Source: Myxococcota bacterium (lineage in GTDB: Bacteria > Myxococcota_A > UBA9160 > UBA4427). From it: DNA of 64,000 nt. Position numbers and translations under genes: made by a program. The stretch lies in NCBI GenBank assembly GCA_041389495.1, contig JAWKRT010000001.1:1682471-1746470 (forward strand), read 5' to 3'. The notes under the pieces are model-generated. The model saw only the letters and a list, made by a program, of their open reading frames with translations, was not told the origin of the DNA and ran no database searches. This document shows positions 5,603 to 24,664 of this stretch, piece after piece (positions within the stretch are counted from its first letter, which is position 1; each line of letters starts with the position of its first letter).

Positions 5603-5625
5603 GGGTCTCCGCCGTCGCTCGCCGC

Positions 5626-6936: not shown

Positions 6937-8018
6937 GCGACGGCCTCGCCGCCGGGAGCGGGATGCGCGTCGCGCGCGGCGTCGCGCGCGTCGACGGGAG
7001 CGGCGAGCAGGTGGGGCGCGAGCGCGGCGAGGTCGTCCGGGCCGCGCACCGCGCCCGGGAGGAACGGCAGCACGACGACGGGCAGCTGCACGAGCTCGCC
7101 GAGCATCGCGAGCTGGCGCTCGTGCAGCGCGCGCCGCGCGACGCGGTGGCGGATGCAGCGCGCGAGCACGCCGGGCGGCGGCGCGCTCGGCGCGCCCGCG
7201 CGCGCGCCCGCCTCGCTCGCGGCCAGCGCGTCGAGCGCGTCGGGCAGGCTCTCGAGCGACGCCGGGAGCGGCCGCGCCTCGACGGCGTTCACGACGATCC
7301 GATCGACCGCGATCTGCCGTTCGCTCCGCAGCCGCCCGACCAGCTCCGCCGTCTCGCGCACCGGGAGCTCCTCCGCGAGCGCGACGGGGAGCAGGCGCGT
7401 GCGCCGCGGGTCCGCGAGCAGGCGCTCCACCTCGGCCGCGTTGCGCCGCAGCGGCCCCGTCCGCACGGCGGAGGCGACGACGTGCGGGACGTCGAGGAAG
7501 GTGAGGCCGTGCCCGGTGGCGGGGGCGTCGACGACGATCAGGTCGACGGTCGGGCGTCCGTCGCGCTCGCGGCCGCGCTCGAAGTGCCAGATGGCGCCGA
7601 GCGCGATCAGCTCGCGCCAGCCGGGCGTCGCCCCCATGAGCTGCTGGAAGGCGCGGTTGCGCACCACGCGCTCGGCGACGAACGAGCCGAGCTGCAAGCC
7701 GAGGTAGTCGGCGAGGGCGTCGAAGGGGTCGAGTCGCATCGCGCGCAGCCCGGGCGCGACCTCGCGGCCCGCGTAGCCGACCGGTCCGACGCCCGGGCGG
7801 ACGAGCGCGGCGGCCTGCTCGTCGCGTCCGACCTCGGCGAGGAGCACGCGGCGGCCCGCGCGGGCGGCGGCGAGCGCGAGCGCCGCCGCGACCGTCGTCT
7901 TCCCCGTGCCGCCCTTGCCCGTCACGATGACGAGCCGCGCGTCGAGCAACGGCGGCAGCGGGTCGGGCATCACGAGGACCTCTCGCACCTGGCGTCGGGA
8001 CGCGACGGGCGCCGGCAT
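6933..8018 (-). CDS. ArsA/Get3-family P-loop ATPase (first paralogue)
   Basis: ORF track, 361 aa. It has VIVTGKGGTGKTTVAAALA and VVDAPATGHGLTFL. An alternative start is ATG 7970 (MPDPLPPLL). The stop overlaps the next ArsA-like start by 4 nt. Confidence 0.85.
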   Translation of the reverse strand: MPAPVASRRQVREVLVMPDPLPPLLDARLVIVTGKGGTGKTTVAAALALAAARAGRRVLLAEVGRDEQAAALVRPGVGPVGYAGREVAPGLRAMRLDPFDALADYLGLQLGSFVAERVVRNRAFQQLMGATPGWRELIALGAIWHFERGRERDGRPTVDLIVVDAPATGHGLTFLDVPHVVASAVRTGPLRRNAAEVERLLADPRRTRLLPVALAEELPVRETAELVGRLRSERQIAVDRIVVNAVEARPLPASLESLPDALDALAASEAGARAGAPSAPPPGVLARCIRHRVARRALHERQLAMLGELVQLPVVVLPFLPGAVRGPDDLAALAPHLLAAPVDARDAARDAHPAPGGEAVA

Positions 8019-9439: not shown

Positions 9440-9632
9440 CGCGCTCGGAGCGACGTTCGTCGCCGTCGCCGGGCGTCACGTCGATCTCCTTCTTCTCGTC
9501 CTTGATGCCCGACTTGAAGTTGCGGATGGCCTCGCCGATGCCGCTCCCGATCTCGGGGAGGCGGCGCGCGCCGAACAGCAGCACGCAGATCGCCAGGATC
9601 ACGACCAGCTCCATCGGACCGAGGCCGAACAT
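9414..9632 (-). CDS. tatA: twin-arginine translocase subunit TatA/E
   Basis: ORF track, 72 aa. [40 protein letters not shown] is the canonical TatA TM segment plus amphipathic helix. Confidence 0.95.
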
Positions 9633-9799
9633 GGCGACTCCCCTCGTGCGTGGATGGGCCCGAACGCTCGACGCGGTGCGCGCAGGCGCGGACGCGTCGA
9701 CGGAGGGCGACGGGGCGGAAGGGCGCAGAGAGTGACGCCGGCCCGGAGTGCGGTCAAGCGCGCGGGCAGGGCCGCCGCGCGGCTAGGATCCCGCCCGCC

Positions 9800-11143
9800 A
9801 TGATCTTCAAGGCCTACGACATCCGCGGAATCGTTCCCGACCAGCTCGATCCGAAGCTCGCCTATGCGATCGGCCGCGCCACGGCGCGTCACTTCGAGGC
9901 CGACACGCTCGCCGTCGGGCGCGATGCGCGCCCGCACTCGCCCGACCTCTGCGAGGCGCTGATCGAGGGCATCCGCGACGAGGGCACGCACGTCGTCGAC
10001 CTCGGACTCGTGTCGACACCGATGCTCTACTTCGCGGTCGACCACCTCGAGACCGACGGCGGCGTGATGGTCACCGCGTCGCACAACCCGAGCCAGTACA
10101 ACGGCTTCAAGCTGTGCCGCGAGCACGCCATTCCGGTCGGCGAGGCGAGCGGGCTGCGCGAGATCGAGAAGCTCGTGCCCGCGCGCGCGAGCGCGCAGGC
10201 GGTCACACCGCGCGGCGAGCTGCGCGTCGAGGCCGTGCTCGACGAGTACGTCGAGCACGTGCTGTCGGTGGGGAAGGGGCGCCCGTCGCTCACCGTCGCG
10301 ATCGACTGCGGCAACGGCATGGCCGGACGCGCGCTCGGGCCGCTGCTCGATCGGCTCGGCCTGCGCACGGAGCTCCTCTACGTCGAGCCCGACGGCACCT
10401 TCCCGAACCACGAGGCCGACCCGCTCAAGCTCGAGAACCTCGAGGACCTGATCGCCGCAGTGACGCGCGTCGGCGCCGACTTCGGCGTCGCGTTCGACGG
10501 CGACGGCGATCGCGCCGTCTTCGTCGACGACGCGGGCGAGCCCGTCTCGTCCGACCTCGTGACCGCGCTGCTCGCGCGCTACCAGCTGCAGCGCGTGCCG
10601 GGTGGCCGCGTGCTCTACGACCTGCGCTCGAGCAAGGCGGTCCGCGAGGAGATCGTCGCGGCGGGCGGCACGGCCGAGATGTGCCGCGTCGGCCACTCGT
10701 TCGTGAAGGCGCAGATGCGCGAGACGGGCGCCGTCTTCGCGGGCGAGCTCTCCGGACACTTCTACTTCCGCTTCTCGCCGACGCTCGTCGCGGACGACGG
10801 CACGGCCGCGTTCGTCGCGATGCTCGACGTGCTCGCCGACCGCAAGGAGCCGCTGTCGAAGATCGTCGCGCCGCTGCGGCGCTACTCGGCGAGTGGCGAG
10901 ATCAACCGGCGCGTGCGCGACACGGACGCCGTGATCGGCGCGGTCGCGGCCGAGCACACCGGTGCGGACGAGGTCTCGCGGCTCGACGGCCTGCTCGTCC
11001 GCTACGCGGACTGGTGGTTCAACCTGCGGCCGTCGAACACCGAGCCCGTGCTGCGCCTGAACCTCGAGGCCGACACGCGCGAGAAGATGGAGCTCGAGCG
11101 CGACCGCATGCTCGCGCGCATCGAGGAGCTCGGCGCGGCCTAG
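9800..11143 (+). CDS. phosphomannomutase/phosphoglucomutase
   Basis: ORF track 9650..11143, trimmed to ATG 9800 (MIFKAYDIRGIV). It has the active-site loop TASHNPSQYNGFK, the metal loop FDGDGDR and GELSGH. Confidence 0.93.
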   Translation: MIFKAYDIRGIVPDQLDPKLAYAIGRATARHFEADTLAVGRDARPHSPDLCEALIEGIRDEGTHVVDLGLVSTPMLYFAVDHLETDGGVMVTASHNPSQYNGFKLCREHAIPVGEASGLREIEKLVPARASAQAVTPRGELRVEAVLDEYVEHVLSVGKGRPSLTVAIDCGNGMAGRALGPLLDRLGLRTELLYVEPDGTFPNHEADPLKLENLEDLIAAVTRVGADFGVAFDGDGDRAVFVDDAGEPVSSDLVTALLARYQLQRVPGGRVLYDLRSSKAVREEIVAAGGTAEMCRVGHSFVKAQMRETGAVFAGELSGHFYFRFSPTLVADDGTAAFVAMLDVLADRKEPLSKIVAPLRRYSASGEINRRVRDTDAVIGAVAAEHTGADEVSRLDGLLVRYADWWFNLRPSNTEPVLRLNLEADTREKMELERDRMLARIEELGAA

Positions 11144-12395: not shown

Positions 12396-13253
12396 ATGGG
12401 CGGCGCGGGCGCGGCCGATCGCGAATCGACGGGCGCGATCGCGCGCTTCCGGGCCGGAGCGGCGCTCGTGCCCCGCGCACTCCGCCTGCTGCGCGCGCGC
12501 TCGGAGCTGTGGGCGCCGGCCGCCGTTCCCGCGCTCGTGACCGCGGTGCTCGTAGCGTTCGCGATCGCAGTCGTCGCCGCGAACGCGGGCGGCTGGTCGG
12601 CGGCCGTCGCGCGCGCGCTCCCGAGCCCGGTCGCGGAGTCGGCCTGGCAGTGGCTGTGGGTCGGCCCCGTCGTCGCCGGCCTCTGGCTGGCTCGGCAGCT
12701 GCTCGTCGCGGTGCTCGCCGCGGCGGCGCTCGTCGCCGCGATGCTCGCCGCCGCGCTGCTCACGTCGCCGGTCCTCGACGTGCTCTCGCAGCGCGTCGAG
12801 CGGGCGCTCACGGGCGCCGCCGCGGGCGACGACGAGGCCTTCGACGCCGGCCGGCTCGCGCGCGACGCGCTCCGCTCGCTCGGCCACGAGGCGCGCAGGC
12901 TCGCGTTCTTCGCGGCGGTCTGGCTCGCGATCACCGCGGGCGGGTTCGTCGTGCCGTTCGGCCCCGCGCTCGCGCCGATCGCGCTCGCGGCGTTCGCGGT
13001 CGCCTACCTCCCGCTCGAGTACGCGGGCTTCGCGCTCGACCGCCGGCGCGTCGCCTTCGGCGCGCGCCGCGCGTGGCTGCGCGCCGAGCGCGCACGCACG
13101 CTCGGCTTCGGTGCCGCGGCGTTCGCGATCGGCGCCGTACCCGGGCTCAACTTCGCGCTGCTGCCGGTGCTCGTCGCCGCGGGGACGCTGCTCGTCGTCG
13201 AGCGGCCTCCGCTCGCCGCGCCACCGTCGCCGCGCGCCGTCGCTCGCGACTAA
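12396..13253 (+). CDS. EI24/CysZ-like (DUF540) integral membrane protein
   Basis: Part of ORF 11796..13253, starting at ATG 12396 (MGGAGAADRE). It has four or more hydrophobic segments, and the conserved YLPLEYAGFALDRR region is reminiscent of the CysZ/EI24 family. The family assignment is tentative. Confidence 0.65.
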   Translation: MGGAGAADRESTGAIARFRAGAALVPRALRLLRARSELWAPAAVPALVTAVLVAFAIAVVAANAGGWSAAVARALPSPVAESAWQWLWVGPVVAGLWLARQLLVAVLAAAALVAAMLAAALLTSPVLDVLSQRVERALTGAAAGDDEAFDAGRLARDALRSLGHEARRLAFFAAVWLAITAGGFVVPFGPALAPIALAAFAVAYLPLEYAGFALDRRRVAFGARRAWLRAERARTLGFGAAAFAIGAVPGLNFALLPVLVAAGTLLVVERPPLAAPPSPRAVARD

Positions 13254-14074
13254 CGAGCTTCCGCGCCGTCGAGGCCGACGTGCGCGCGGACGAACTGCCA
13301 GATGCGCTTCAGCGCGGCGCCGGGCAGGTCGGCGTGGCCGCTCGCGAACCAGGCGACGTCCGCCGGCCCGCGCGCGGCGGCGTGGAGTCGCAGCGCGGCT
13401 TCGCGCGGGATCGTCTCGTCGCGCTCCGCGTTCACGAACAGGAGCGGGCGCGGGGCGATCCGCTCGACCCACGCGGAGAGCGCGAGTGCCGCGCCGTCGG
13501 GCGGCGTGCCCGCGACCGCGATCGCCGCCGCGCGCGGGCGCGGGTCGGCGCCGCAGAGCGCGCAGCCGAGCAGGCCGCCGAGGCTGAACCCCACGTACGC
13601 GACGCGTGTCGCGTCGACCTGCGGAAGCTGCGCGAGCGCGTCGAGCAGGCGGCGCAGGTCGAGCACTGCCTGGCGGGCGAGCTCGGTCCACAGGATCTGC
13701 TCGACGCCGTCGAGCGGCTCGCCCCGGAGCGCGCGCGGGGCGCTCGCGGCGAGGCGCTCGCCCATCTTCGCGTTCGCGCGCGCGCCGTGGAGCGGGAGGT
13801 CGAGCGTGGCGACGGCGGCTCCCTCGCTCACCCAGCGCCGGGCCATCTGCATGTACGCCGCGTCGCGCGAGCCGCCGAGCCCGTGGACGAGGAGCACGAC
13901 CGGCGGAGGCGCGTCGCCCGTCGGTGGGAGCGCGACGCGGGCGGGGACGCGGTCGCCGCGCGACGAGAGCTCGAGCTCGAGGCGCGGGCCTTCGCCGTCG
14001 CCGGCGGGCAGGGTGGCGACGCGCAGCGCGAGCGGCTCGTCGGGGTCGGGGCGGAGCGTGGCGTCGTCGAGCAT
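13250..14074 (-). CDS. alpha/beta hydrolase (dienelactone-hydrolase-like)
   Basis: ORF track, 274 aa. It has the VLLVHGLGG oxyanion region, the nucleophile elbow GFSLGG, and a C-terminal D...H (ERDETIP, SGHAD). Confidence 0.85.
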   Translation of the reverse strand: MLDDATLRPDPDEPLALRVATLPAGDGEGPRLELELSSRGDRVPARVALPPTGDAPPPVVLLVHGLGGSRDAAYMQMARRWVSEGAAVATLDLPLHGARANAKMGERLAASAPRALRGEPLDGVEQILWTELARQAVLDLRRLLDALAQLPQVDATRVAYVGFSLGGLLGCALCGADPRPRAAAIAVAGTPPDGAALALSAWVERIAPRPLLFVNAERDETIPREAALRLHAAARGPADVAWFASGHADLPGAALKRIWQFVRAHVGLDGAEAR

Positions 14075-14185: not shown

Positions 14186-14764
14186 TCAGGGCGCGAGCAG
14201 GAGCTTGCGCGTGCGGTAGAGATGCGACTTCACCGAGTCCTCGCTCTTGCCGAGCGCGAGCGCGATCTCCGCGATCGATCGCTCCTCGAGGTGGTGGAGC
14301 CGGAAGACTTCGCGCTGCTCGTCGGACAGCTTCTCGGCGAGCGCGCTCGCGAGCGCGTCGGCGCGCTCGCGGCAGTCGTACATCTCGTCGGGCGACGGCA
14401 GCGACGAGGGGGCGGCCGGGTGCGGCGCCGACGAGGCGATGTCCTCGTCCTCGATCGACACGACCGGGTGCTGCCGGCGCTTGTAGCGGCTCGCGATGGT
14501 CCGCCGCGTCAGCCCGAAGACCCAGGCCACGAAGGGCGCGTCGCCGCGGTAGCTCTGGATCGACGAGAAGACGTTGATGAAGACCTCCTGGACGGTCTCC
14601 TCGGCGTCGGCGCGGTTGTCGACCCGCCGGCCGACGAAGAGCGCGATGCGCTTGAAATAGCGCTCGTAGAGGGCCTCGAAGGCCGCCTCGTCCCCGCGGC
14701 GCATGCGCTCGACGAGCAGCTCGTCGTCGAGGGCGCCGATGTCGCGGATCTGCGGGGCTGCCAT
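14186..14764 (-). CDS. ECF-type RNA polymerase sigma-70 family factor
   Basis: ORF track 14186..14812; I prefer ATG 14764 (MAAPQIRD). Region 2 is FEALYERYFKRIALFVGRRV..AEETVQEVFINVF. Region 4 is LSDEQREVFRLHHLEERSIAEIALALGKSEDSVKSHLYRTRKLL. Confidence 0.9.
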   Translation of the reverse strand: MAAPQIRDIGALDDELLVERMRRGDEAAFEALYERYFKRIALFVGRRVDNRADAEETVQEVFINVFSSIQSYRGDAPFVAWVFGLTRRTIASRYKRRQHPVVSIEDEDIASSAPHPAAPSSLPSPDEMYDCRERADALASALAEKLSDEQREVFRLHHLEERSIAEIALALGKSEDSVKSHLYRTRKLLLAP

Positions 14765-14987
14765 GGGGGGCAGGACTCCTTCCCAGAGCCGGATCGCCTG
14801 CGGTCGCGTCACTGCCGACCGAGCCGACCCTTCGCGCGGCCCCGGCGGAGGCCGAGCGAGTGCTCGAAGGGATGAGTGGCGGCGAGGGGTGCCGAGGTGT
14901 CAAGAAAAGTCACCGGGTGCCGAAAATCGTCGCTTGCCCTCGGCTCGATCCCCGGGATCCTGCCCCGCGGGATGCGGGCGCGCAAGC

Positions 14988-15635
14988 TCAGCTCGACGCG
15001 GGAAGCGGCGAGGAGGCCGCACCGAGGTCGGCCTCGGTGAGCCGCGTGCGGAATCGCGAGGCCTCGGCCGGGGAGGCCGGCCCCGCGGCCGCAGCCGGCG
15101 GCGGCCGCGGCCCCTCCGCGCGCGCGCGGTCCGAGCGCGCCGCCGCGGTCGCGGGCGCTTGCGGGGCGAGCGCGTGCGGCTTCACCCCGTCGGCGGGGTG
15201 CGGTGCGGTCGGAGCGTCCGCGGCCTCCCCACCCGAAGACGCGTCGTCGGCCGCCGCGGGGCCGGGCCGCGCCGGCAGGCAGCGCACGCGCGCGTCTCCG
15301 AGCCACAGGGCCGCCGCGAGCGTGTCGGGCTCGAAGGCGCGCGCGACGAGCACGGCGCGCACGGGGCGCGCGGCGTCGAGGCCGCTCGCGCGGGCGAGCT
15401 GCTCCCAGTCCGGGAGGCGCGGCTCGAGCCACGCGATCGCCGCGAGCGCGCGCGTCAGCACGGCGCCGTCGTCGGGCGCGTCGCAGAAGAACACGACGTG
15501 GACGCCGCCGCCGGGGTCGAGCGCGACGGCATCGATGCGGTGGACGGCGCCGAGCACGTCCCACGCGAGCGGTGTGAGCTCCGGCGCGACGGCGGCCAGC
15601 TCCGCGCGCAGCGCCTCTCGATCGAAGTCACGCAT
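14988..15635 (-). CDS. hypothetical protein: small globular N-domain plus a Pro/Ala-rich disordered tail
   Basis: The C-terminal 215 aa of ORF 14988..15935, starting at ATG 15635 (MRDFDREALRAELAAV). The start overlaps the stop of the upstream MinD-like gene by 8 nt. HRIDAVALDPGGGVHVVFFCD is vaguely NucS/PD-(D/E)XK-like. The tail ends SRFRTRLTEADLG. Confidence 0.6.
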   Translation of the reverse strand: MRDFDREALRAELAAVAPELTPLAWDVLGAVHRIDAVALDPGGGVHVVFFCDAPDDGAVLTRALAAIAWLEPRLPDWEQLARASGLDAARPVRAVLVARAFEPDTLAAALWLGDARVRCLPARPGPAAADDASSGGEAADAPTAPHPADGVKPHALAPQAPATAAARSDRARAEGPRPPPAAAAGPASPAEASRFRTRLTEADLGAASSPLPASS

Positions 15636-16395
15636 CGGCCGCGCCTCCGATGTCCTCGACGAGCAGCGCGGCCACGTCGGCGAGCGTGCGCGCCGCGGGC
15701 GACTGCGGGTGCGCGAGGCCGACGGGCCGCTGCGAGAGGATCGCCCGGTAGAGGTGGAGGTCGTCGGCGACGAGCCCGTAGCTCGCGATCGGCCGCGGGA
15801 TCGCCGCGTCGGTCGCGCTCGCGAGCGCGTCGAAGGCCGTGCGCGCTTCCGCGATGCTGCGCACGCCGTGGATCGTGGCGCCGATGCGCGCGGCGGGCGC
15901 GGCGCGCGCGATGTCGAGCACCGCGGCGGCGGCACGCCGGCGCCCGTCGTCGTCGGCTGCGCACAGGACGAGCCACGTCCCCGGCGCGTCCGGCCCCGCG
16001 GCGACCTCGCGCAGCGCGAGCTCGGGAACGCAGGCGAGCACGCAGCGCGCGCGCCCGCCCGAGCGCTCGGCCGCCTGCGCGAGGGCAGTGCGCGCGATCT
16101 CGGCCGCGGGAGCGCGGTCGAGCAGCGCGACGCGACAGCCGAGCGGGCCCGGGCCGTCGCCCGGCCACACCGCCTCGCTCGACTCGTCGCGGGCCGCGAC
16201 GAGCGACGCCTCCGCGCCGGCGCGCGCGAGCTCGACGCACAGGTTCCAGGCGAAGGCGGCGCGCAGCACGTCGCCGTCGCCGACCGGGATCGCCACGACG
16301 GCGCGCCGCTCGCGCGCGTCCGCGCTGCGCGGGGGAGGGTGCGCCGACGCCTCCTCGCGGCGCGCGGCCGCCTCGGGGATGAAGTAGTGGATCAC
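15628..16395 (-). CDS. MinD/ParA-family protein with a degenerate P-loop (probable pseudo-ATPase)
   Basis: The C-terminal 255 aa of the 1053-aa ORF 15628..18789. The start is GTG 16395 (VIHYFIPE), or GTG 16416. Where MinD/ParA has GKGGVGKT, this protein reads VVAIPVGDGDVLRAAFAWNLCVELARAG. The C-terminal YGLVADDLHLYRAILSQRPVGLAHPQSPAA matches the MinD/FlhG layout. Confidence 0.7.
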   Translation of the reverse strand: MIHYFIPEAAARREEASAHPPPRSADARERRAVVAIPVGDGDVLRAAFAWNLCVELARAGAEASLVAARDESSEAVWPGDGPGPLGCRVALLDRAPAAEIARTALAQAAERSGGRARCVLACVPELALREVAAGPDAPGTWLVLCAADDDGRRRAAAAVLDIARAAPAARIGATIHGVRSIAEARTAFDALASATDAAIPRPIASYGLVADDLHLYRAILSQRPVGLAHPQSPAARTLADVAALLVEDIGGAADA

Positions 16396-16556
16396 GTCGC
16401 CCAGATCGCGCGGCACCAAGGCTCCCCGTCGCGCGCGCACTCGCCGGCGCGCGCGCTCCACCGTACGGGCTCGCGCGGTGATTTGCGAGGGGACACCCCC
16501 TCTGTTCGTGGATCTCGAGAAGCCGCGGAGCGGCCGCCGCGCGGCGGCGCGGCCTC

Positions 16557-17651
16557 CTAGGCGATCACGAGCACCGAGTTGCGGCGGCCGGATGCGCTCG
16601 GCACGGACTCGGGGTTGCTCGGATCCTCGCGCCACTCGCCGTCGACGACGTAGCGGTACTGGTACGTCCCGGGCGGCAGCTGGAGGATCTTCGTCCACAC
16701 GCGCGTCTGGCCGGTCGACTCGATCACCGAGCGGACGCCCTTGTCCGGGATCCAGCCGTTGAAGTCGCCCGCGATGCGCACGTCGCCCGCGCTCGGGTCG
16801 CGGAAGCGCACGACGACCTCGCGCATGTCGGCGGTGGTGCGCGACGCGGCGGTGGGCGCCGCGATCGCGGGCTGCTGGGCCTCGGGCGGCGTCGCCTCGA
16901 CCTCGAGCGCGAGCGCCGCGTAGTCGACCGCGCCGTTCGAGCTCGGCGCGAAGCGGTTGATCGGCTTTCCGTGCTGCGCGGCCTCGCGCAGCTTCACGTT
17001 GATGCGGATCACGCTGTCGAAGCACAGGTCCTTGAACAGCTCGCGGATCTCGCCGAGCGTCTGGCGCGCGTACTTCGTGCGGCCGTCGTAGAGCGTCGGC
17101 AGGATGCGGACGGTGAGCTCGTGGCCGATGCGGTCCGCGAGCAGGCCGATCGTCTCGAGCAGCTTCTGCACGCCGTCGATCGCGAAGTAGCTCGTCTCGA
17201 GCGGGACGATCACCTCGCGCGCCGCGCGCAGCGCGTTGAACGTGAGCATGCCGACCGCCGGCGGGCAGTCGATCAGCACGTAGTCGTAGGGCGTCGGCAG
17301 GCGCTCGAGCGCGTTCGCCAGCCGCTCGGTCGGCGCGTCGCCCGTCTGCGCAGCGAGCTTCTGCTCGATCGCCGAGAGCACGATGCCCGAGGGCGCGAGG
17401 TCGAGCCGCTCGCCCGCGTTCACGACGATCTGCGCGAGCTGGTCGGCGCCGTCGGGATCGACGAGCACCTCGTACACGTTCTCGGAGAGCTCGTCCGGGT
17501 CGACCCCGAGCGCGATCGTCGTGTGGGCCTGCGGGTCGAGGTCGACGGCGAGCACGCGGGCGCCGTCGGCGGCGAGGCTCGCGGCAAGGTTGACGGTGGT
17601 CGTCGTCTTGCCGCAGCCGCCCTTCTGGTTCACGACTGCGATGACGCGCAT
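16557..17651 (-). CDS. ParA/Soj-type deviant Walker-A ATPase fused to a C-terminal AMPK-beta/CBM48-like glycogen-binding module
   Basis: ORF track 16557..17723, trimmed to ATG 17651. The N-terminus is MRVIAVVNQKGGCGKTTTTVNLAASLA, followed by DLDPQ and LIDCPP. The last ~85 aa are VVVRFRDPSAGDVRIAGDFNGWIPDKG...LPPGTYQYRYVVDGEWREDPSNP...NSVLVI. Confidence 0.88.
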   Translation of the reverse strand: MRVIAVVNQKGGCGKTTTTVNLAASLAADGARVLAVDLDPQAHTTIALGVDPDELSENVYEVLVDPDGADQLAQIVVNAGERLDLAPSGIVLSAIEQKLAAQTGDAPTERLANALERLPTPYDYVLIDCPPAVGMLTFNALRAAREVIVPLETSYFAIDGVQKLLETIGLLADRIGHELTVRILPTLYDGRTKYARQTLGEIRELFKDLCFDSVIRINVKLREAAQHGKPINRFAPSSNGAVDYAALALEVEATPPEAQQPAIAAPTAASRTTADMREVVVRFRDPSAGDVRIAGDFNGWIPDKGVRSVIESTGQTRVWTKILQLPPGTYQYRYVVDGEWREDPSNPESVPSASGRRNSVLVIA

Positions 17652-17849
17652 GGCATCCTCTCTTCCGGGGTGCGCGACGGGACGGCTTCCTCCCCGTCGC
17701 GTTCCCCCGACGCCGCCCCCCATGGCGACGTCGCTCGCGGCTGCGAGCCGACTCCCTGCAGTCCTCCCCGGAGCTCCGCGCGGACGCCGCCCGGACTCCG
17801 TGCGCCTCCCGCTGCCCGGCCCCGCAGCCGGCAGGCGCCGTGCGCGAGG

Positions 17850-18455
17850 TCAGCCGGCCGTCTGCTGCCGTCTCTCGGTCCGGACCGCGCGCGCGCGGCG
17901 CACGGGCTCGACGCGCGTCGCGGCGCCGTCCGCGCCCGGCGCGCGCGCGCACCGTCCGCCGTCGTCGAACGCCGCGAGCTCCTTCGCGAGCTGCGCGACT
18001 TCGAACACCCACTCCTGGCCCGACAGGGCCTCGTACGCGTGTGCGCCCTCGATCACGAGCAGCACGTCGCCCGTCGCGACGATCACGAGCTCTTCGAGCG
18101 GGCGCTCGATCGCGGGAAGGCGTTGCGCGAGCGCCTCGAGGCAGCGTCGGATGCGCTGCACGGAGACGCCCGCGTCGATCAGCCGCTTGGTCGCCTTCAC
18201 TGCGATGAGATCGCTGAATCCGTAGCGGTGGTGTCCGCCCGGCGTGCGCGCCGACGGCACGACGAGGCCCGTCTTCGCCCAGTACTGGAGCTGGCGCCGC
18301 GTGACGCCGAGTGCGCCGACGACTTCCTGCGTCCGGTAGTGCCGCGACCGGCCGGGCGCGCTCCGTCGCGCTCGCCCGTCGGCCGGCTCGGGCGCGTCGC
18401 TCCCGGCGGACACGCCGGACCCGCTCGCGCCGCTCGCGCGCAGACCAATGCCCAT
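17850..18455 (-). CDS. MerR-family transcriptional regulator
   Basis: ORF track, 201 aa. The HTH is YRTQEVVGALGVTRRQLQYWAKTGLVVPSARTPGGHHRYGFSDLIAVKATKRLIDAGVSVQRIR. Confidence 0.88.
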   Translation of the reverse strand: MGIGLRASGASGSGVSAGSDAPEPADGRARRSAPGRSRHYRTQEVVGALGVTRRQLQYWAKTGLVVPSARTPGGHHRYGFSDLIAVKATKRLIDAGVSVQRIRRCLEALAQRLPAIERPLEELVIVATGDVLLVIEGAHAYEALSGQEWVFEVAQLAKELAAFDDGGRCARAPGADGAATRVEPVRRARAVRTERRQQTAG

Positions 18456-18646
18456 CGGAACCCCCCGCCGTCCGGCGACCGGCGCGCTCGGACGGTCGGC
18501 AGTTTACGAGAAAGCGAGCCGAAAACACAAAGAAAATGTTGCGTTCGAGGGACTGCGACGCGCAATCTCGGAGGCTCACCGGTGGACCGGTCGGGGTTCG
18601 TCCGGGTGCGATCGACGAGCGACGACCGACCCGGGGGCCGCGCGCG

Positions 18647-19855
18647 ATGGCGCAGCGACGGAGCAAGGGGTCGGGCGGCGACGAGGCGGGCGGCGAGCGC
18701 ATCTTCGTCGAGGACCGCAACGGCCGCCGCCCGTTCATGCGCGGGATCATGGTCCACGCGCTGATGGCGCGCGGCGTCGGCTTCGACAAGGCCTACGAGA
18801 CGGCCGATCGCGTGCGCTCGAAGCTGCGCGGCCGCACCGTCGTCGCGCGCGACGAGCTGACGCGCATGGTGGGCGAGCTGCTCGGCGAGGGCGAGCTGCG
18901 CGACCACCAGCCGCCGCTCCCCGACCCCTTCGAGATCGACGTCGGCAGCGGGAAGAACGCACTGCCGTTCTCGAAGGGCGTGCTCGCGCAGTCGCTGCTC
19001 GCGGCATCGATCGACCCGACCGCGGCGTTCGAGACCGCGCGCGACATCGAGGCCGAGCTGCGGCGCCGCGGCGCGACGCGCGTCTCGCGCGGCGGCCTGC
19101 GCAAGCTCGCGCACCAGGCGCTGCTCGATCGCTTCGGCGATCGCACGGCCGATCGCTACATGGTCTGGCGCCAGCACCAGGAGCCGCGCAAGCCCGTCAT
19201 CATCCTGCTCGGCGGCACGACCGGCGTGGGCAAGACGTCGATCGCGCTCGAGGTCGCGCTGCGGCTCGGCATCCGGCGCGTGCTGTCGACGGACTCGATC
19301 CGCCAGGTGATGCGCATCGTGCTCCCGCGCGAGCTCGCGCCCGCGCTGCACGCCTCCTCCTTCGACGCGCACCGCGCGCTCAAGCTCGAGGGCGCGCCCG
19401 GGACGCGCGTCGTCGACGGCTTCCTGCAGCAGGCGACGGCCGTGACGGTCGGCGTGCGCGCCATCCTCGACCGCGCCGTCGAGGAGAACACGAGCGTCGT
19501 GATCGACGGCGTGTCGCTCGTGCCGGGCCTGCTCGACATGTCCACCTATCGCGAGGCGGCGTTCGTGATCCCGCTCGTCGTCGCGCGGCTCGACGAGGCG
19601 TCGTTCCGCGGCCACTTCCGGCAGCGCGGGGTCGACGCGACGCGGCGCGGGACGCGGCGCTACCTCGAGAACCTCGACGCCATCCTGCAGATCCAGGAGC
19701 ACATGCTCGAGGCGGCCGACGCGAACGACGTGCCGATCGTCGACAACCTCTCGGTCGAGAGCTCGGTCCTGCTCGTCATGCGACACGTCGTCGAGACGCT
19801 GCGCGAACGGGAGTCCACGGAGACGCCGGAGCTGCCCTACGCTAAGCGCTCGTAG
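18647..19855 (+). CDS. ATP-cone domain + COG2074-type P-loop kinase (2-phosphoglycerate kinase-like)
   Basis: Part of ORF 18311..19855, starting at ATG 18647 (MAQRRSKG). The ATP-cone-like N-terminus is IFVEDRNGRRPFMRGIMVHALM.. The kinase core is PVIILLGGTTGVGKTSIALEVALRLGIRRVLSTDSIRQVMR. Confidence 0.82.
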   Translation: MAQRRSKGSGGDEAGGERIFVEDRNGRRPFMRGIMVHALMARGVGFDKAYETADRVRSKLRGRTVVARDELTRMVGELLGEGELRDHQPPLPDPFEIDVGSGKNALPFSKGVLAQSLLAASIDPTAAFETARDIEAELRRRGATRVSRGGLRKLAHQALLDRFGDRTADRYMVWRQHQEPRKPVIILLGGTTGVGKTSIALEVALRLGIRRVLSTDSIRQVMRIVLPRELAPALHASSFDAHRALKLEGAPGTRVVDGFLQQATAVTVGVRAILDRAVEENTSVVIDGVSLVPGLLDMSTYREAAFVIPLVVARLDEASFRGHFRQRGVDATRRGTRRYLENLDAILQIQEHMLEAADANDVPIVDNLSVESSVLLVMRHVVETLRERESTETPELPYAKRS

Positions 19856-19897
19856 TCGCGGAGACCGCCCCCCAACCCGAACCGCGAGGCCCGCGTC

Positions 19898-21313
19898 ATG
19901 TCCACCGCTCCCCCCAGCGCGCGCACGCTCGGCGAGCTGCGCGCGCACGGCCACGCGCCGCGCACGCTCCGCCAGGAGATCCACGCGAACCTCGTCGCGC
20001 GCCTGCGCGAGGGCGCGCCGCTCTTCCCCGGCGTGAAGGGCTACGAGGACACCGTCGTGCCGGCGGTCGAGAACGCGCTGCTGTGCGGGCACGACGTGAT
20101 CTTCCTCGGCGAGCGCGGGCAGGCGAAGACGCGCATGATCCGCGCCTTCGCGTCGCTGCTCGACGAGTGGCTGCCCGTCGTCGCCGGCAGCGAGATCCAC
20201 GACGACCCGTTCGCCCCGATCTCCGCGTTCGCGCGCGAGCGCGTCGCCGAGCGCGGCGACGACACCGAGATCGCGTGGATCGGGCGCGACGCCCGCTACA
20301 CCGAGAAGCTCGCGACGCCCGACGTCTCGATCGCCGACCTGATCGGCGACGTCGACCCGATCAAGGTCGCCGAGGGGCGCCACCTGTCCGACGAGCTCAC
20401 GATCCACTTCGGCCTGCTGCCGCGCAGCCACCGCGGGATCTTCTGCATCAACGAGCTGCCCGACCTGACGGAGAAGGTGCAGGTCGGGCTCTTCAACGTG
20501 ATGGAGGAGCGCGACGTCCAGGTGAAGGGCTACCGCGTGCGCCTGCCGCTCGACGTGCTCGTGGTCGCGAGCGCGAACCCCGAGGACTACACGAGCCGCG
20601 GTCGCATCATCACGCCCCTCAAGGATCGCTATGCGGCGCAGATCCGCACGCACTACCCGCGCACGCGCGACGTCGAGCTCGAGGTCGTCAGGCAGGAGGC
20701 CGAGCTGCCCGCGGCCGAGGGCGTCGCGCTCGCGATCCCGTCCTTCCTCGAGGACGTCGTCGCGCAGCTCACGTTCGAGGCGCGGCTGTCGCCGGACGTG
20801 TCGCAGACGTCGGGCGTCTCGGTGCGCATGACGATCGCGAACTACGAGACGCTCGCGGCCGCCGCGCTGCGCCGCGCGCTGCGGCTCGGCGAGGACCGCG
20901 CGGTCGCGCGCGTCTCGGACCTCGCCGCGCTGCTCGCGTCGTCGACGGGCAAGCTCGAGCTCGAGTACGCGGGCGCGGAGCAGACGGAGACGGAGGTCGT
21001 CGAGGGGCTCCTGCGGCGCGCGACGCGCGTCGTCTTCGACGAGCGCATGGGCCAGGTGGAGGGGCTCGCGGCCGTCGTCGATGCGTTCCAGGAGGGCTGG
21101 CAGGTCGAGGTCGGCGCGGCGATGCCGTCGGCCGACTACCTCGAGGGCATCGACCAGATCCCGGGCCTGCGCGACGCCGCGGCGGCGCTCGCCGGCTCGA
21201 CCGGCGACGCGGCCATGGCGTCGGCGATCGAGTTCGTGCTCGAGGGGCTGCACCTGCGCAACCAGCTGAACAAGGCCGAGGGCGCGAGCGCCGTCCGCTA
21301 CCAGCGCCGATGA
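19898..21313 (+). CDS. ChlI/BchI-like AAA+ ATPase (often auto-annotated as sigma-54-interacting or Mg-chelatase-like)
   Basis: ORF track, 471 aa. Walker A is FLGERGQAKTRM. Walker B and sensor regions are HRGIFCINELPDL and VVASANPEDYTSRGRIITPLKDR. Confidence 0.85.
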   Translation: MSTAPPSARTLGELRAHGHAPRTLRQEIHANLVARLREGAPLFPGVKGYEDTVVPAVENALLCGHDVIFLGERGQAKTRMIRAFASLLDEWLPVVAGSEIHDDPFAPISAFARERVAERGDDTEIAWIGRDARYTEKLATPDVSIADLIGDVDPIKVAEGRHLSDELTIHFGLLPRSHRGIFCINELPDLTEKVQVGLFNVMEERDVQVKGYRVRLPLDVLVVASANPEDYTSRGRIITPLKDRYAAQIRTHYPRTRDVELEVVRQEAELPAAEGVALAIPSFLEDVVAQLTFEARLSPDVSQTSGVSVRMTIANYETLAAAALRRALRLGEDRAVARVSDLAALLASSTGKLELEYAGAEQTETEVVEGLLRRATRVVFDERMGQVEGLAAVVDAFQEGWQVEVGAAMPSADYLEGIDQIPGLRDAAAALAGSTGDAAMASAIEFVLEGLHLRNQLNKAEGASAVRYQRR

Positions 21314-22938
21314 GGACGTGGCGGTACAGCCGCTGGGACGGCACGCAGGAGTCGTTCGCACTCGACGCGAAGCGCGCGCTCGACGCGATGACCGACCTCA
21401 TGATGGAAGGGCTCGACGCGCAGGAGGCGCTCGCGTGGATGCGCGAGCACGGCTTCGAGCTCGGCGGCGCGAACTTCCGCGTGATGGGCCTGCAGGAGCT
21501 GCGGCGCGAGCTTCGCCAGCAGCTCGAGTCGCTCTTCGATCGCTGGCGGCTCGACGAGGCGACGCGCTCGCTCGAGGAGCGGCTCGACGACGTGCTCGAG
21601 CGCGAGGAGCGCGCGCAGCGCGAGCGCCACGGCTACGAGTCGAGCGCGATGAACGAATTCCTCGAGCGCCGCCACGGCGAGAGCGAGCGCCTCTCCGAGC
21701 GCATCGAGCGGATGCGCGACCACGACTTCGCGGACGACGAGGCGGGCGCCGACTTCCGCGAGCTGCTCGACGAGCTCGACCGGCTGCGCGCGCTCGAGGA
21801 GTTCGCGCAGCAGCAGGGGCCGCGGTTCCGCGGCGACCGCGCGGCCGACTACGACGAGGCGCAGGAGATCCGCCAGCAGGTCGAGCGCCTGCAGCAGATG
21901 CTCGAGCAGCTCGCGAACGGCGACCTCGCGTCCGTCTCGCCCGAGGAGCTCGCCGAGATGCTCGGCGACCCGGCCGCGCAGTCGTTCGTGCTGCTGCGCG
22001 ACCTCGAGGGCTCGATGCGCGACGCCGGCTATCTCCGCGGCGAGGATCCGCGGCTCACGCCGCGCGCCATCCGCCGCATCGGCGCGCAGGCGCTCGCCGA
22101 CGTCTACGGCGCGCTCCGCAAGGGGCGCCCCGGCACGCACGAGACCGTCGCGCGCGGCGTCGCGCTGCCGCGGCCCGACGAGACGCGCCCGTGGGCCTTC
22201 GGCGACCCGTTCGACCTCGACATCGTCGGGACCGTGATGAACGGCGTGAAGCGCCGCGCCGCGCAGGGCGCGGCGCCCGGTGCGCGCGTCGCGCTCTCGC
22301 CCGACGACTTCCAGATCCACGAGATGGACTGGACGACGCAGTCGACCACCGTGCTGCTGCTCGACCTCTCCTGGTCGATGTCGTGGGCCGGCCGCTTCCC
22401 GGCCGCGAAGCGCGTGGCGCTCGCGATGGACCAGCTCGTGCGCACGCGCTACCCGCGCGACCACTTCTTCGTGGTCGGCTTCTCGACGCAGGCGCGCGAG
22501 ATCGCGATCCGCGACCTGCCCGAGGTGAGCTGGGACATGGGCGACCCGTTCACCAACCTGCAGCACGGGCTCGAGATCGCCGAGCGCTTGATCGGCCAGC
22601 ACCCGAGCCCGTCGCCGCAGATCATCGTCGTCACCGACGGGCAGCCGACGGCGTATCGCGAGTCGGCGACGGGCGAGCTGCGCGTCGAGTGGCCGATGGG
22701 CATGGGCGGCGTGTCGCCGCACGCGGTCGCGGAGACGCTCAAGACGGTGAAGCGCGTGACGCGGCGCGGCTCCACGATCAACACGTTCATGCTCGACGAC
22801 GCGCCCGAGCTCGTCGGCTTCGTCGAGCGCATGACGCAGATCAACCGCGGCCGCGCCTTCTTCTCGAGCCCGCAGCAGCTCGGCTCGTTCCTGATGGTCG
22901 ACTACATCGCGCGGCGCAAGCTGCGACGGGGCGCCTGA
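21310..22938 (+). CDS. VWA-domain protein (BchD/CoxE-like partner of the AAA+ ATPase)
   Basis: Part of ORF 20083..22938, starting at ATG 21310 (MRTWRYSRWDG), with an ATGA overlap on the AAA+ stop. The C-terminal VWA has a MIDAS-like VLLLDLSWSMS and VVTDGQPTA. Confidence 0.85.
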   Translation: MRTWRYSRWDGTQESFALDAKRALDAMTDLMMEGLDAQEALAWMREHGFELGGANFRVMGLQELRRELRQQLESLFDRWRLDEATRSLEERLDDVLEREERAQRERHGYESSAMNEFLERRHGESERLSERIERMRDHDFADDEAGADFRELLDELDRLRALEEFAQQQGPRFRGDRAADYDEAQEIRQQVERLQQMLEQLANGDLASVSPEELAEMLGDPAAQSFVLLRDLEGSMRDAGYLRGEDPRLTPRAIRRIGAQALADVYGALRKGRPGTHETVARGVALPRPDETRPWAFGDPFDLDIVGTVMNGVKRRAAQGAAPGARVALSPDDFQIHEMDWTTQSTTVLLLDLSWSMSWAGRFPAAKRVALAMDQLVRTRYPRDHFFVVGFSTQAREIAIRDLPEVSWDMGDPFTNLQHGLEIAERLIGQHPSPSPQIIVVTDGQPTAYRESATGELRVEWPMGMGGVSPHAVAETLKTVKRVTRRGSTINTFMLDDAPELVGFVERMTQINRGRAFFSSPQQLGSFLMVDYIARRKLRRGA

Positions 22939-22939
22939 C

Positions 22940-24664
22940 GTGGCCGGCGCGCGCGACGTCCGCGCCTTCGTGCGGCGGCTCGGCGGCAACGCCGCGACCG
23001 GCGTGCGGCGGCTCGCCGAGCGCGCCGTCGTCGGCCGGCGCACGGATCGCGACACGCTGTGGCTGCTCGTGCGGCTGCGCGGCGACGCGACGGAGCTGCG
23101 CCCGTCGCGCTTCTCGTGGTCGAGCGAGCCGCGCCTGCCGGCGCTCGTCGACCTGCTCCGCGCGCTCGAAGCGGCGCGCGACGACGCGCGCGTGCGCGGC
23201 CTCGTGCTGCGCTTCGAGGGCGGCCCGGCGACGCTCGTGCAGGCCGCCGCACTGCGGCGCGCGGTCGTCGCGCTGCGCGAGGCGGGCAAGGCCGTGTGGG
23301 CGTGGAGCGAGGCGTACGACGCGCTCGAGCTGTGGGTCGCCTCGGCGTGCGAGCGCGTCGACGTCGCGCCGACGGGCTCCGTGCACCTGCTCGGCTTCCG
23401 CACGGCGCAGGTCTTCGCGCGCCCGCTCCTCGAACGGGTCGGCGTGCGCGCCGACGTCGTGCGCATCGGCACGCACAAGGCCGCCGCCGAGCCGCTCACG
23501 CGCGCCGCGATGTCGCCCGAGCAGCGCGAGCAGCTCGAGGCCTGGCAGCGCGACGCCTTCGACCGGCTCGTCGACGACGTCGCGCGCGGTCGCTCGCTCG
23601 CGCCCGACGCCGTGCGCGCCGCGATCGACGAAGGGCCGTTCGCGGCGCGCGACGCCGCGGAGCGCGGGCTCGTCGACGACGTCCGCTACCCGGACGAGGT
23701 CGAAGCCGCGCTCGCCGCCGCGACGCCGAACGCGCGGCGCGGCGCGGCCGCGCGCGCGGAGGGCGAGGACGCGCCGCTCGCGCCGCTCGTCGACGTCGCC
23801 GCCTACGCCGCGCTCTGCGGCGGCGACGGCGGCTGGCACCCGCTCTTGCGCGGCCTCCCGCGCGTCGCCTACGTCGTCGCGAGCGGCACCGTCTGGCGCG
23901 GGCGCGGGGCGGGCGGCGTCGCGAGCCAGCGGTACGGCGAGCTCCTCGCGCAGCTGCGCCGCGCGGACGAGGTGCGCGCCGTCGTGCTGCGCATCGAGAG
24001 CGGCGGCGGCGACGCCGTCGCGTCCGATCTCCTGTGTCGCGCGGTCGAGCGGCTCGCCGCGCGCAAGCCGGTCGTCGCGTCGTTCGCGGGCGTCGCGGCC
24101 TCGGGCGGCTACTACCTCGCGGCCTCCGCGAGCGCGATCGTCGCCGAGGCGCAGACGCTCACGGGCTCGATCGGCGTCGTCGGAGGCAAGCTCGATCTCT
24201 CGGGGCTCTACGAGCGGCTCGGCGTGCGTGTCGACGCGGTCGAGAGCGGCGCGCGCGCGGGCCTCCTGTCGCCGACGCGCGGCTTCACGCCCGCCGAGCG
24301 CGGCGCGCTCCAGCGCGAGATGCGCGTGCTCTACGACGCCTTCCTCGAGCGCGTCGCGCGCGGGCGCTCGCTCGAGCGCGCGGCGGTCGAGCGCGTCGCG
24401 CAGGGGCGCGTGATGAGCGGCGCGCACGCGCGCGAGCACGGTCTCGTCGATGCGATCGGCGGGCCGCTCGAGGCGCTCGCCATGGCGTGCGAGCGCGCCG
24501 GGCTCGCGCGCGGAGAGCGCTATGCGCTCGACGTGCTGCCCCGCGGCCCGGGCTTCGGCGCGTGGCCGTGGCTGCGGGGCTTCGGCGGATCGCGCGCGGA
24601 GCCGGGCCTCCTGTCCGAGCTCGGACGGAGCTTCGGCTTCGGGGAGCGGGCCCGGCTCGACTGA
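22940..24664 (+). CDS. sppA: signal peptide peptidase SppA, 67K type (two S49 domains)
   Basis: ORF track, 574 aa. It has two ClpP/S49-like halves (RGLVLRFEGGPATL..; VVLRIESGGGDAVASD...AASGGYYLA...TGSIGV). Confidence 0.88.
   Translation: MAGARDVRAFVRRLGGNAATGVRRLAERAVVGRRTDRDTLWLLVRLRGDATELRPSRFSWSSEPRLPALVDLLRALEAARDDARVRGLVLRFEGGPATLVQAAALRRAVVALREAGKAVWAWSEAYDALELWVASACERVDVAPTGSVHLLGFRTAQVFARPLLERVGVRADVVRIGTHKAAAEPLTRAAMSPEQREQLEAWQRDAFDRLVDDVARGRSLAPDAVRAAIDEGPFAARDAAERGLVDDVRYPDEVEAALAAATPNARRGAAARAEGEDAPLAPLVDVAAYAALCGGDGGWHPLLRGLPRVAYVVASGTVWRGRGAGGVASQRYGELLAQLRRADEVRAVVLRIESGGGDAVASDLLCRAVERLAARKPVVASFAGVAASGGYYLAASASAIVAEAQTLTGSIGVVGGKLDLSGLYERLGVRVDAVESGARAGLLSPTRGFTPAERGALQREMRVLYDAFLERVARGRSLERAAVERVAQGRVMSGAHAREHGLVDAIGGPLEALAMACERAGLARGERYALDVLPRGPGFGAWPWLRGFGGSRAEPGLLSELGRSFGFGERARLD

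Follow-up and report, generated by a model that had tools for sequence, protein, structure and literature searches.

A conserved four-gene cluster around a ParA-type ATPase

The DNA analysed here, referred to as the window, is a 64-kb stretch of a Myxococcota genome with a G+C content of about 75%. Four genes in the window form a cluster in the order merR, parA::CBM, g2 and g3, and all of them lie on the minus strand, as an earlier reading of this DNA (the original prediction) had stated. The first gene (17850..18455) encodes a MerR-family helix-turn-helix (HTH) protein of 201 amino acids, and the second (16557-17651) encodes a ParA-type ATPase that ends in a carbohydrate-binding module (CBM), as identified by the Pfam families AAA_31 and AMPK1_CBM. 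The third gene, g2 (15628..16416), encodes a protein of 262 amino acids which is identical to the hypothetical protein R3E88_07525 of a Myxococcota metagenome-assembled genome (MAG), encoded there on a 2.4-Mb contig. The fourth gene, g3 (14988..15635), encodes a protein of 215 amino acids in which family alignments delimit a head, a Pro/Ala linker and a C-terminal motif. The cluster is real, strongly conserved and undescribed in the literature searched, and it encodes a ParA/MinD spatial ATPase system with three unusual features: a CBM48 domain fused to the ATPase, a partner that is a pseudo-ATPase and bears a ParB-like peptide, and an adaptor with an inactivated nuclease fold.

The gene g2 was found in 95 GTDB species, which are all represented by MAGs; their labels are Myxococcota or Deltaproteobacteria, apart from a few that are evidently wrong. 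One genome per species was scanned, and 80 species loci were retrieved for the analysis of synteny. The order MerR, ParA::CBM, g2, g3 was present in about 75 of the 80 loci, followed by genes for an ECF sigma factor and a hydrolase and flanked on the other side by a divergent gene for an ATP-cone kinase. The same order was found in 3/3 contigs that were picked via the ParA::CBM protein alone. Since the order recurs across about 80 loci and in all three independently picked contigs, the clustering is far beyond chance, and the synteny in relatives on which the original prediction depended is present. In a protein search with ParA::CBM, the best 120 clusters were all 69-99% identical and all carried PF16561.

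A Soj-like ATPase fused to an AMPK-beta-type CBM

Residues 1-253 of ParA::CBM (16893..17651, minus strand) form a ParA/Soj-type ATPase domain, which matched AAA_31 with an E-value of 6.8e-52 (176 bits) and CbiA with 75 bits in Pfam. The deviant Walker A motif NQKGGCGKTTT and the motifs VDLDPQ and LIDCPP are all intact and are invariant in a three-sequence alignment (A3), so that the complete ParA/Soj-type deviant Walker A ATPase proposed for this gene is indeed encoded. The closest solved structure is the ParA structure 8ray (6.6e-48), followed by Soj of H. pylori and Soj of T. thermophilus, and the domain is 41-45% identical to chromosomal and plasmid ParA/Soj proteins.

Functional positions of the ATPase were mapped by hand, via the 8ray alignment, onto the residues named for Myxococcus xanthus ParA (PMC12462528). 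In that protein R238E is a DNA-binding mutant (PMC12462528), and the equivalent of R238 is Lys or Arg in all relatives of the window protein (NVKLREAA). By analogy with its closest relatives, the dimeric ATPase would bind the nucleoid through non-specific DNA contacts. The hydrophobic loop of the partner pocket, PPxVGxLTFNAL, is kept beside Walker B, and the equivalents of the M. xanthus ParA pocket residues L150, L152, L155, L187, L192 and Y81 are V, L/M, F, L, I and Y, which are nearly invariant across relatives. Covariation between this pocket and the N-terminal peptide of g2 described below was uninformative because both are almost invariant. MerR, g2 and g3 gave no ParB-like Pfam match, and a CTPase, parS and repeated sites were not found. 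Taken together, these results show that the ATPase is a member of the ParA/Soj family and that the system as a whole is not ParABS. In addition, among the 5000 best-scoring plasmid ParA matches not one extends over the CBM part, and a plasmid-partition origin was rejected on this ground.

The ATPase domain is joined to the C-terminal domain by a variable linker rich in Pro, Ala and Glu (16824..16892), which is unalignable both in A3 and in the tails of homologues. The C-terminal domain (residues 277-364 plus the stop codon, 16557..16823) is an AMPK-beta-type CBM of the CBM48 clan. Its residues 282-359 matched AMPK1_CBM (PF16561) with an E-value of 9.5e-12 and 45.4 bits, above the gathering cutoff of 26.8; CBM_48 (PF02922), the other family named in the original prediction, scored 19.0 bits, which is below its cutoff of 22.4. 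No match in the PDB was obtained when the CBM alone was searched by phmmer. A profile of 19 sequences was required, and this profile matched the CBM structures of AMPK beta1 and beta2 with E-values of about 1e-8, and then the CBM48 domains of the plant glucan phosphatases SEX4 and LSF1. The assignment of the last 85 or so residues to an AMPK-beta/CBM48 module is therefore upheld by the Pfam score and by the structures matched.

We take the sugar-contact residues of AMPK-beta to be W100, K126, W133, L146 and N150. In the profile alignment three of these five positions are identical in the window protein and invariant in its family (W100 is W300, W133 is W340, and N150 is N358), one is replaced conservatively (K126 by R333, an invariant Arg), and one is lost (L146, the position of which is variable). 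Hence, of the glucan-stacking Trp and Lys residues, the Trp pair is kept without variation but the Lys has become an invariant Arg. The family also has an invariant insertion of its own, PDKGVRSxIESxGxTRVWTK, which is absent from AMPK-beta. Among 19 homologues the mean column identity of the CBM is 81%, and its conservation is on par with that of the ATPase domain (60-84%). The C-terminal domain is thus a member of AMPK1_CBM by profile, and it is predicted to bind sugar.

g2 encodes a predicted MinD-fold pseudo-ATPase

The gene g2 had been placed at 15628..16395. The gene is real, but its start is the GTG at 16416, seven codons 5′ of 16395: every orthologue has a start codon at the same position (TTG, GTG or ATG in 59/59 loci), and it is followed by PRDLxDVLHYF(L/I)PE. 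Pfam and NCBIfam gave no match for g2, and when the g2 family was compared with ParA by hhalign, the alignment was limited to 23 columns directly behind the P-loop, so the fold assignment rests on AlphaFold2 and Foldseek together with a family alignment (A1). The AlphaFold2 model, built from a 22-sequence alignment, has a mean confidence (pLDDT) of 87.9. It resembles FleN, FlhG, MinD and Soj with Foldseek E-values of 1e-9 to 1e-6 and template modelling (TM) scores of about 0.6-0.65, and the best matches are FleN 8p53 (1e-9), FlhG 4rz2 (2e-9) and MinD 1hyq (4e-8). The MinD/FlhG layout ascribed to this protein through to its C-terminus is thus reproduced in the model as a SIMIBI fold.

The nucleotide-binding motifs are degenerate. 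Walker A is replaced by GDGDVLRA, as had been noticed from the sequence of the window; the consensus xxDV(L/V)RAA is found in 22/22 aligned homologues, and in the hhalign comparison R52 stands in place of the Walker Lys. The aspartates of switch I (A′, DxD) and of Walker B are not conserved either, as judged by eye from the alignment and the predicted strands. The C-terminal amphipathic helix that targets the membrane is absent from g2, in which the C-terminus LLLEDARxxA is acidic and lies within the last structured helix. We therefore propose that g2 should be classed, from its motifs and its predicted fold, as a MinD-fold pseudo-ATPase and not as MinD.

The identity of g2 among relatives is 34-55%, so that it is much more divergent than ParA::CBM. 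Residues 1-30 have a pLDDT of about 50 and are thus disordered, yet the N-terminal peptide M-P-R-D-L-x-D-V-L-H-Y-F-(L/I)-P-E (16372..16416) is almost invariant across the 59 loci, with R3 present in 56/59 and L5 in 59/59. The spacing phi-x-R-x-L-x-x-phi-phi of this peptide (M1, R3, L5, V8, L9) equals that of L11-R13-L15-L18-I19 in ParB, residues for which binding to ParA has been demonstrated by experiment (PMC12462528). In g2 the peptide is a candidate ParA-binding motif that would activate the ATPase, and an invariant N-terminal peptide with the spacing of the ParB motif makes g2 the more likely activator of the ATPase.

g3 joins a predicted nuclease-fold head to a conserved C-terminal motif

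With 164 clusters (50% identity) in a set of 1.84 billion representatives, g3 belongs to a small family. Pfam searches with 50 members gave nothing consistent, only one weak match to NucS_C. The head of g3 (residues 1-125, 15261..15635) was modelled by AlphaFold2 from a 62-sequence alignment with a pLDDT above 90 for residues 10-125, and it shows the alpha-beta-beta-beta-alpha-beta core of restriction endonuclease-like folds. Foldseek matched it to the PD-(D/E)xK C-terminal domains of NucS (2vld, 2.7e-05) and EndoMS (5gke, 4.9e-05), and weakly to SduA, Card1 and SfsA (5e-3 to 0.1). Of the catalytic residues D...(D/E)xK, D35 alone is conserved, and the sequence of the third strand, VLVLxG or HVVFFC, contains neither an acidic residue nor a Lys. 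With only the first Asp kept and E-x-K missing, the head is unlikely to be a nuclease.

A variable, disordered Pro/Ala linker leads from the head to the short linear motif F-R-(T/S)-G-L-x-D-x-D-L-G-L at the C-terminus (15018..15053). The residues F195, R196 and L199 are invariant and form, with D203 and L204, the pattern F195-R196-x-G-L199...D203-L204. A short helix is predicted by AlphaFold2 at residues 201-204, and in most relatives the motif is followed by (T/S)xEExxxFE. The description of g3 as a globular head with a Pro/Ala-rich tail therefore stands, but the Arg-rich end that was also described is a property of the window copy only, and the conserved motif has one invariant Arg. When the g3 profile was searched against the PDB, a segment of the HslU I-domain, FRKKLREGQLDD, was returned with an E-value of 0.05 and was judged a chance match. 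For the motif as well, the only match among solved structures was an HslU I-domain segment, FRKKLREGQLDDKEIE (E about 0.05), which is probably due to chance.

The 8-nt overlap of g3 with g2 proposed earlier was confirmed, and the start codon of g3 lies at the same -8 position in about 68 of 73 relatives, so that g3 is translationally coupled to g2. The start codon of g2 is TTG in 41/59 loci and that of g3 is TTG in most loci; parA starts with ATG in the window. These weak starts, together with the conserved overlap, suggest that g2 and g3 are made at fixed, lower amounts than the ATPase.

MerR and the promoter of the cluster

The MerR-type regulator expected upstream on the same strand matched MerR_1 (PF13411) with an E-value of 1.5e-14 and 54.3 bits (cutoff 21.6), and PF00376 with 34.4 bits. 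Among 70 orthologues the core HTH and a beta-rich C-terminal segment are 55-65% identical, and the N-terminal extension is variable. In the intergenic region between merR and the ATP-cone kinase gene, k-mer enrichment and an upstream alignment of 66 relatives revealed an AT-rich element (18501..18545, minus strand). It belongs to a conserved sigma-70-type promoter 5′ of merR, ACAAAT...TTTTGG(G/C)TTGACTT-N17/18-TAcgcT, which is present in about 60 of the 66 relatives. In the window copy the AT-rich upstream part is kept and the -35 box is degenerate (CTCGCT). The conserved spacer of 17-18 bp differs from the 19-20 bp spacer of MerR-activated promoters.

No other conserved promoter was found within the cluster, and the spacer between merR and parA holds only a G-rich ribosome-binding site. 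Given one promoter 5′ of merR and only a ribosome-binding site before parA, the four genes probably form one operon. Repeat, promoter and terminator scans and Rfam detected neither centromere-like repeats nor RNA elements in the cluster, and the 140-nt spacer between parA and g2 folded no better than shuffled sequence (z -1.19).

Loss of cluster components in relatives

Three species (L001/L040, L046 and L079), the CBM-less lineages CP070734, JBFIML01 and JAWOLJ01, have a ParA of 279-307 amino acids without the CBM and retain g2 and g3 together with the two peptide motifs. A midpoint-rooted neighbour-joining tree built on the ATPase domain places these ParA proteins on long branches beside CBM-bearing relatives, which indicates that the CBM is the ancestral state and has been lost secondarily; from this distance tree, there may have been one to three independent losses. 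Because both peptides are kept in the CBM-less lineages, neither the g2 peptide nor the g3 peptide is directed at the CBM, and the CBM is dispensable for the function of the ParA-g2 core. In contrast to these losses of the CBM, two sister species (L057 and L070) are without MerR and g3 and keep ParA::CBM and g2, with the ECF sigma factor gene directly after g2. The retention of ParA::CBM with g2 in the absence of g3 marks g2 as the obligatory partner. One further locus (L068) is without MerR only.

Comparison with known systems

The ATPase shares with the M. xanthus ParA-ParB (ParABS) system a short Soj-type ParA with a deviant Walker A motif, a basic residue at the DNA-binding position and a pocket loop by Walker B, and the disordered N-terminal peptide of g2 shares the motif spacing of the ParA-binding peptide of ParB. 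It differs from ParABS in that ParB, its CTPase and parS are absent, the body of the partner is a MinD-fold pseudo-ATPase, the ATPase carries a CBM48 domain, and genes for a MerR-type and a nuclease-fold protein are added. With McdAB of carboxysomes and PomXYZ of the Myxococcus division site, the cluster shares an orphan ParA with rapidly evolving partner genes behind it, whose products contain disordered regions and short peptides that are conserved. PomX and PomY are two activators, of which PomX acts through an N-terminal peptide and PomY has a globular domain, a disordered region and a short helix (PMC13170346), and the arrangement of g2 and g3 as two activators would thus have a precedent. 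In contrast, the cargo is recognised by the partner in McdAB and PomXYZ, whereas here the binding module is fused to the ATPase, and McdB, PomX and PomY share neither sequence nor fold with g2 and g3.

The CBM resembles the glycogen-binding domain of AMPK-beta and the CBM48 domains of SEX4 and LSF1 in its PF16561 match, its identical Trp, Trp and Asn sugar contacts and the Lys that is replaced by Arg. Unlike these, it is bacterial and sits on a P-loop ATPase instead of a kinase scaffold or a phosphatase, it has lost L146, and it has an extra invariant 8-residue insertion. For g2 the nearest proteins are FleN, FlhG and MinD (Foldseek E-values of 1e-9 to 1e-8, TM about 0.65), with which it shares the SIMIBI fold to the C-terminal helix; it differs from them by the missing Walker A motif, switch I Asp, Walker B Asp and membrane helix, by its acidic tail, and by matching no Pfam or NCBIfam profile. 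The head of g3 has the fold of the C-terminal domain of NucS/EndoMS, and the plan of a nuclease-fold domain followed by a C-terminal partner-binding peptide is also alike. However, g3 keeps only the first catalytic Asp, is without the N-terminal DNA-binding domain, and ends in a motif unrelated to clamp-binding peptides.

ParA/MinD ATPases are the general means by which bacteria place chromosomes, plasmids, division sites, carboxysomes, chemoreceptor arrays and flagella. To our knowledge, the distribution of glycogen granules at bacterial division is essentially unstudied. PhaM and PhaF tether granules of polyhydroxybutyrate (PHB) and other polyhydroxyalkanoates (PHA) to the nucleoid for even inheritance; they are not ATPases and bind DNA and granules passively. 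The proposal made below shares with them a carbon-storage granule on the nucleoid and differs from them by an ATP-driven ParA cycle. A 2024 review of the ParA/MinD family and a 2023 study of multiple cargoes mention neither glycogen nor granules nor carbohydrate, and a polysaccharide cargo for the family is not described in the literature searched. The full-text search also returned no paper that joins ParA to AMPK1_CBM, to a glycogen-binding domain or to glycogen positioning, and none of the literature searched for a pseudo-ATPase partner of ParA or MinD describes an active ParA with a P-loop-dead MinD-like partner. According to the original prediction, neither the fusion nor the pairing was known to have been characterised, and the searches agree.

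A possible link between alpha-glucan particles and a ParA ATPase cycle

In the general ParA/MinD scheme, an ATP-dependent dimer sits on a surface, and a short peptide of a partner triggers hydrolysis. We propose, with a probability of about 0.4, that the cluster is an orphan ParA/MinD-type module which couples alpha-glucan (glycogen) particles to the ParA ATPase cycle. It would be a chromosomal module of spatial organisation in which the ATPase itself bears the domain that recognises the cargo. The Soj-like ATPase would dimerise with ATP and bind the nucleoid non-specifically, and the CBM48 on the flexible linker of each subunit would allow the dimer to grip a glycogen particle by two weak sugar-binding sites. 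The pseudo-ATPase g2, predicted to be unable to bind nucleotide, would fill the role of the partner, and docking of its peptide would trigger hydrolysis by ParA. With its inactive nuclease-fold head and its tail peptide, g3 would be made in step with g2 and could act as a co-activator or adaptor, as PomY does beside PomX. MerR would control the cluster and probably also the divergent ATP-cone kinase gene. The net effect would be that glycogen granules are spread over the nucleoid or tethered to it and are inherited evenly.

The homology of the C-terminal domain makes glycogen plausible as the cargo, and several points weigh against it. No glycogen-metabolism genes (glg, treS-glgE) were found by the Pfam scans, which covered 33 other open reading frames (ORFs) across the window and not every ORF. 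In known systems the cargo carries the partner and not the ATPase, and a ParA that is permanently bound to its cargo does not fit the standard diffusion-ratchet model. The loss of the CBM in three lineages argues that the CBM is an add-on and that the primary cargo could differ. Within the CBM, the equivalent of AMPK L146 is not conserved and there is a conserved 8-residue insertion. Finally, the resemblance in spacing between the g2 peptide and ParB is one of pattern over 9 residues and not of homology.

A variant of this proposal, which we consider improbable, is that the ATPase works like MinD with glycogen as its surface in place of the membrane. Dimerisation with ATP would double the valency of the weak CBM48, as it does for the amphipathic helix of MinD, so that the dimer and not the monomer would stick to the granule. 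As dual activators, g2 and g3 would then release the ATPase, which would give self-organised patterns on the granules or between granules and nucleoid. If so, this would be the first ParA/MinD system with a carbohydrate polymer as matrix or cargo and the first with a pseudo-ATPase paralogue as activator.

The ATPase could instead be part of a switch that responds to metabolic state. As in AMPK, the CBM would inform the ATPase of how much glycogen is present or in what state it is, and ParA, g2 and g3 would regulate another process. That process might be transcription, through MerR or the adjacent ECF sigma factor, or replication or division, for which Soj-DnaA and FleN-FleQ can be compared. 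Several results are consistent with this reading: the CBM is of the AMPK-beta type (45 bits) and not of the enzyme-linked CBM48 type (19 bits), g2 is structurally most similar to FlhG and to FleN in its complex with FleQ, and the cluster is flanked in nearly all relatives by MerR, the ECF sigma factor and the divergent P-loop kinase, whose ATP-cone is a nucleotide-sensing domain. However, the flanking synteny may only mirror shared ancestry in one clade, the spacing of the merR promoter is ordinary (17-18 bp, not 19-20 bp), and neither a target of regulation nor, near g2, a bacterial enhancer-binding protein as its partner can be identified. We regard a switch as unlikely.

Slightly less credible is a partition or organisation system directed to DNA or the nucleoid, with MerR or g3 as a DNA-bound, ParB-like adaptor, a chromosomal locus as cargo and the CBM as a later accessory. 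The ATPase is nearest to chromosomal Soj/ParA, the head of g3 has the fold of DNA enzymes (NucS/EndoMS and, more weakly, SduA) with the catalytic residues lost, and the HTH of MerR resembles RacA, BldC and FtsR-type proteins with low scores. The persistence of the ParA-g2-g3 core after loss of the CBM points the same way. Against this, centromere-like repeated sites were found neither in nor around the cluster, which also has no ParB, CTPase or parS, the two species without MerR and g3 keep ParA::CBM and g2, and purifying selection on the CBM equals that on the ATPase domain in more than 95% of species.

AMPK's CBM also makes protein contacts, which would favour the view that the domain here is a protein-interaction module that tethers the ATPase to a proteinaceous cargo or scaffold and is similar to glycogen-binding domains in structure only. 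The mean column identity of 81% exceeds the needs of a simple sugar binder, and the invariant insertion is specific to the family and absent from AMPK-beta. We nevertheless hold this view to be improbable, to about the same degree as the DNA-directed system, since the sugar-stacking Trp pair and the Asn are invariant, and lineages without the CBM retain the peptides of g2 and g3, which thus are not ligands of the CBM.

Synteny conserved in the core genome effectively refutes an anti-phage defence or mobile-element module. Such systems often contain ParA-like ATPases, HTH proteins and PD-(D/E)xK domains, the head of g3 weakly matches the nuclease domains of Shedu SduA and Card1, and the HTH of MerR hits PADLOC mad1 (1.4e-9). 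However, the mad1 match is confined to the generic HTH, no match in PADLOC was obtained with g2 or g3, the nuclease catalytic motif of g3 is absent, all 5000 best-scoring plasmid ParA matches leave the CBM uncovered, and the same housekeeping neighbourhood recurs in about 80 species, with DsbA-like, PGM/PMM, Ffh and PlsB genes in the window.

Judged from the homology of the binding domain, the cluster could be the first case in which a ParA system is linked to a storage polysaccharide. Two features of its design are not described for the family, namely a cargo-binding module inside the ATPase and a nucleotide-dead MinD-fold paralogue with a ParB-like activation peptide. With few soluble proteins, a predicted ligand (glycogen) and two defined peptides, it is a tractable candidate. 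Should the cargo not be glycogen, the known range of ParA partners would still be widened by a pseudo-ATPase and by an adaptor with an inactivated nuclease fold.

Neighbouring genes

The cluster lies among ordinary chromosomal genes. The Pfam scans of the 33 ORFs identified genes for a histone-deacetylase-like protein, acyltransferases, a phosphoglucomutase/phosphomannomutase (PGM/PMM)-family mutase and a DsbA-like protein around it, and Pfam and NCBIfam added an alpha/beta hydrolase, an ECF sigma factor and a P-loop protein with an ATP-cone that resembles 2-phosphoglycerate kinase. The window further contains genes for a MoxR-like AAA protein, a VWA protein, SppA, a LysM-SLT transglycosylase, Ffh, PlsB, CcmF and others.

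Downstream of g3 in nearly all relatives are the genes for the ECF sigma factor (14186-14812, minus strand) and then the alpha/beta hydrolase (13250-14074, minus strand), with no recognisable anti-sigma gene between the two. The PGM/PMM-family mutase (9518-11143, plus strand) has all four Pfam domains and is the only sugar-phosphate enzyme among the scanned ORFs of the window; it may be GlmM or a phosphoglucomutase. In one relative (L002), a gene with these four domains is likewise close to the cluster. At 4410-8018 on the minus strand, two adjacent genes for ArsA/Get3-like SIMIBI ATPases (6933-8018 and 5626-6936) are followed by a gene for a PhaR-like regulator of PHB accumulation (4410-5045; PF07879, E-value 1.2e-25). 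The latter is a second gene related to storage granules, about 10 kb from the ParA::CBM cluster, and any link between the two is unproven. A pair of ArsA-like genes is also present downstream in L002.

On the other side, divergent from merR, a plus-strand group (18647-24664) encodes the ATP-cone kinase, the MoxR-like AAA protein, a VWA/Rv0959-like protein and an SppA S49 peptidase. In NCBIfam, the kinase with the ATP-cone scored 314 bits, under the equivalog cutoff of 343. In relatives, the ATP-cone kinase gene is the one most tightly tied to merR, and the AAA and VWA genes are swapped for others in one locus (L084).

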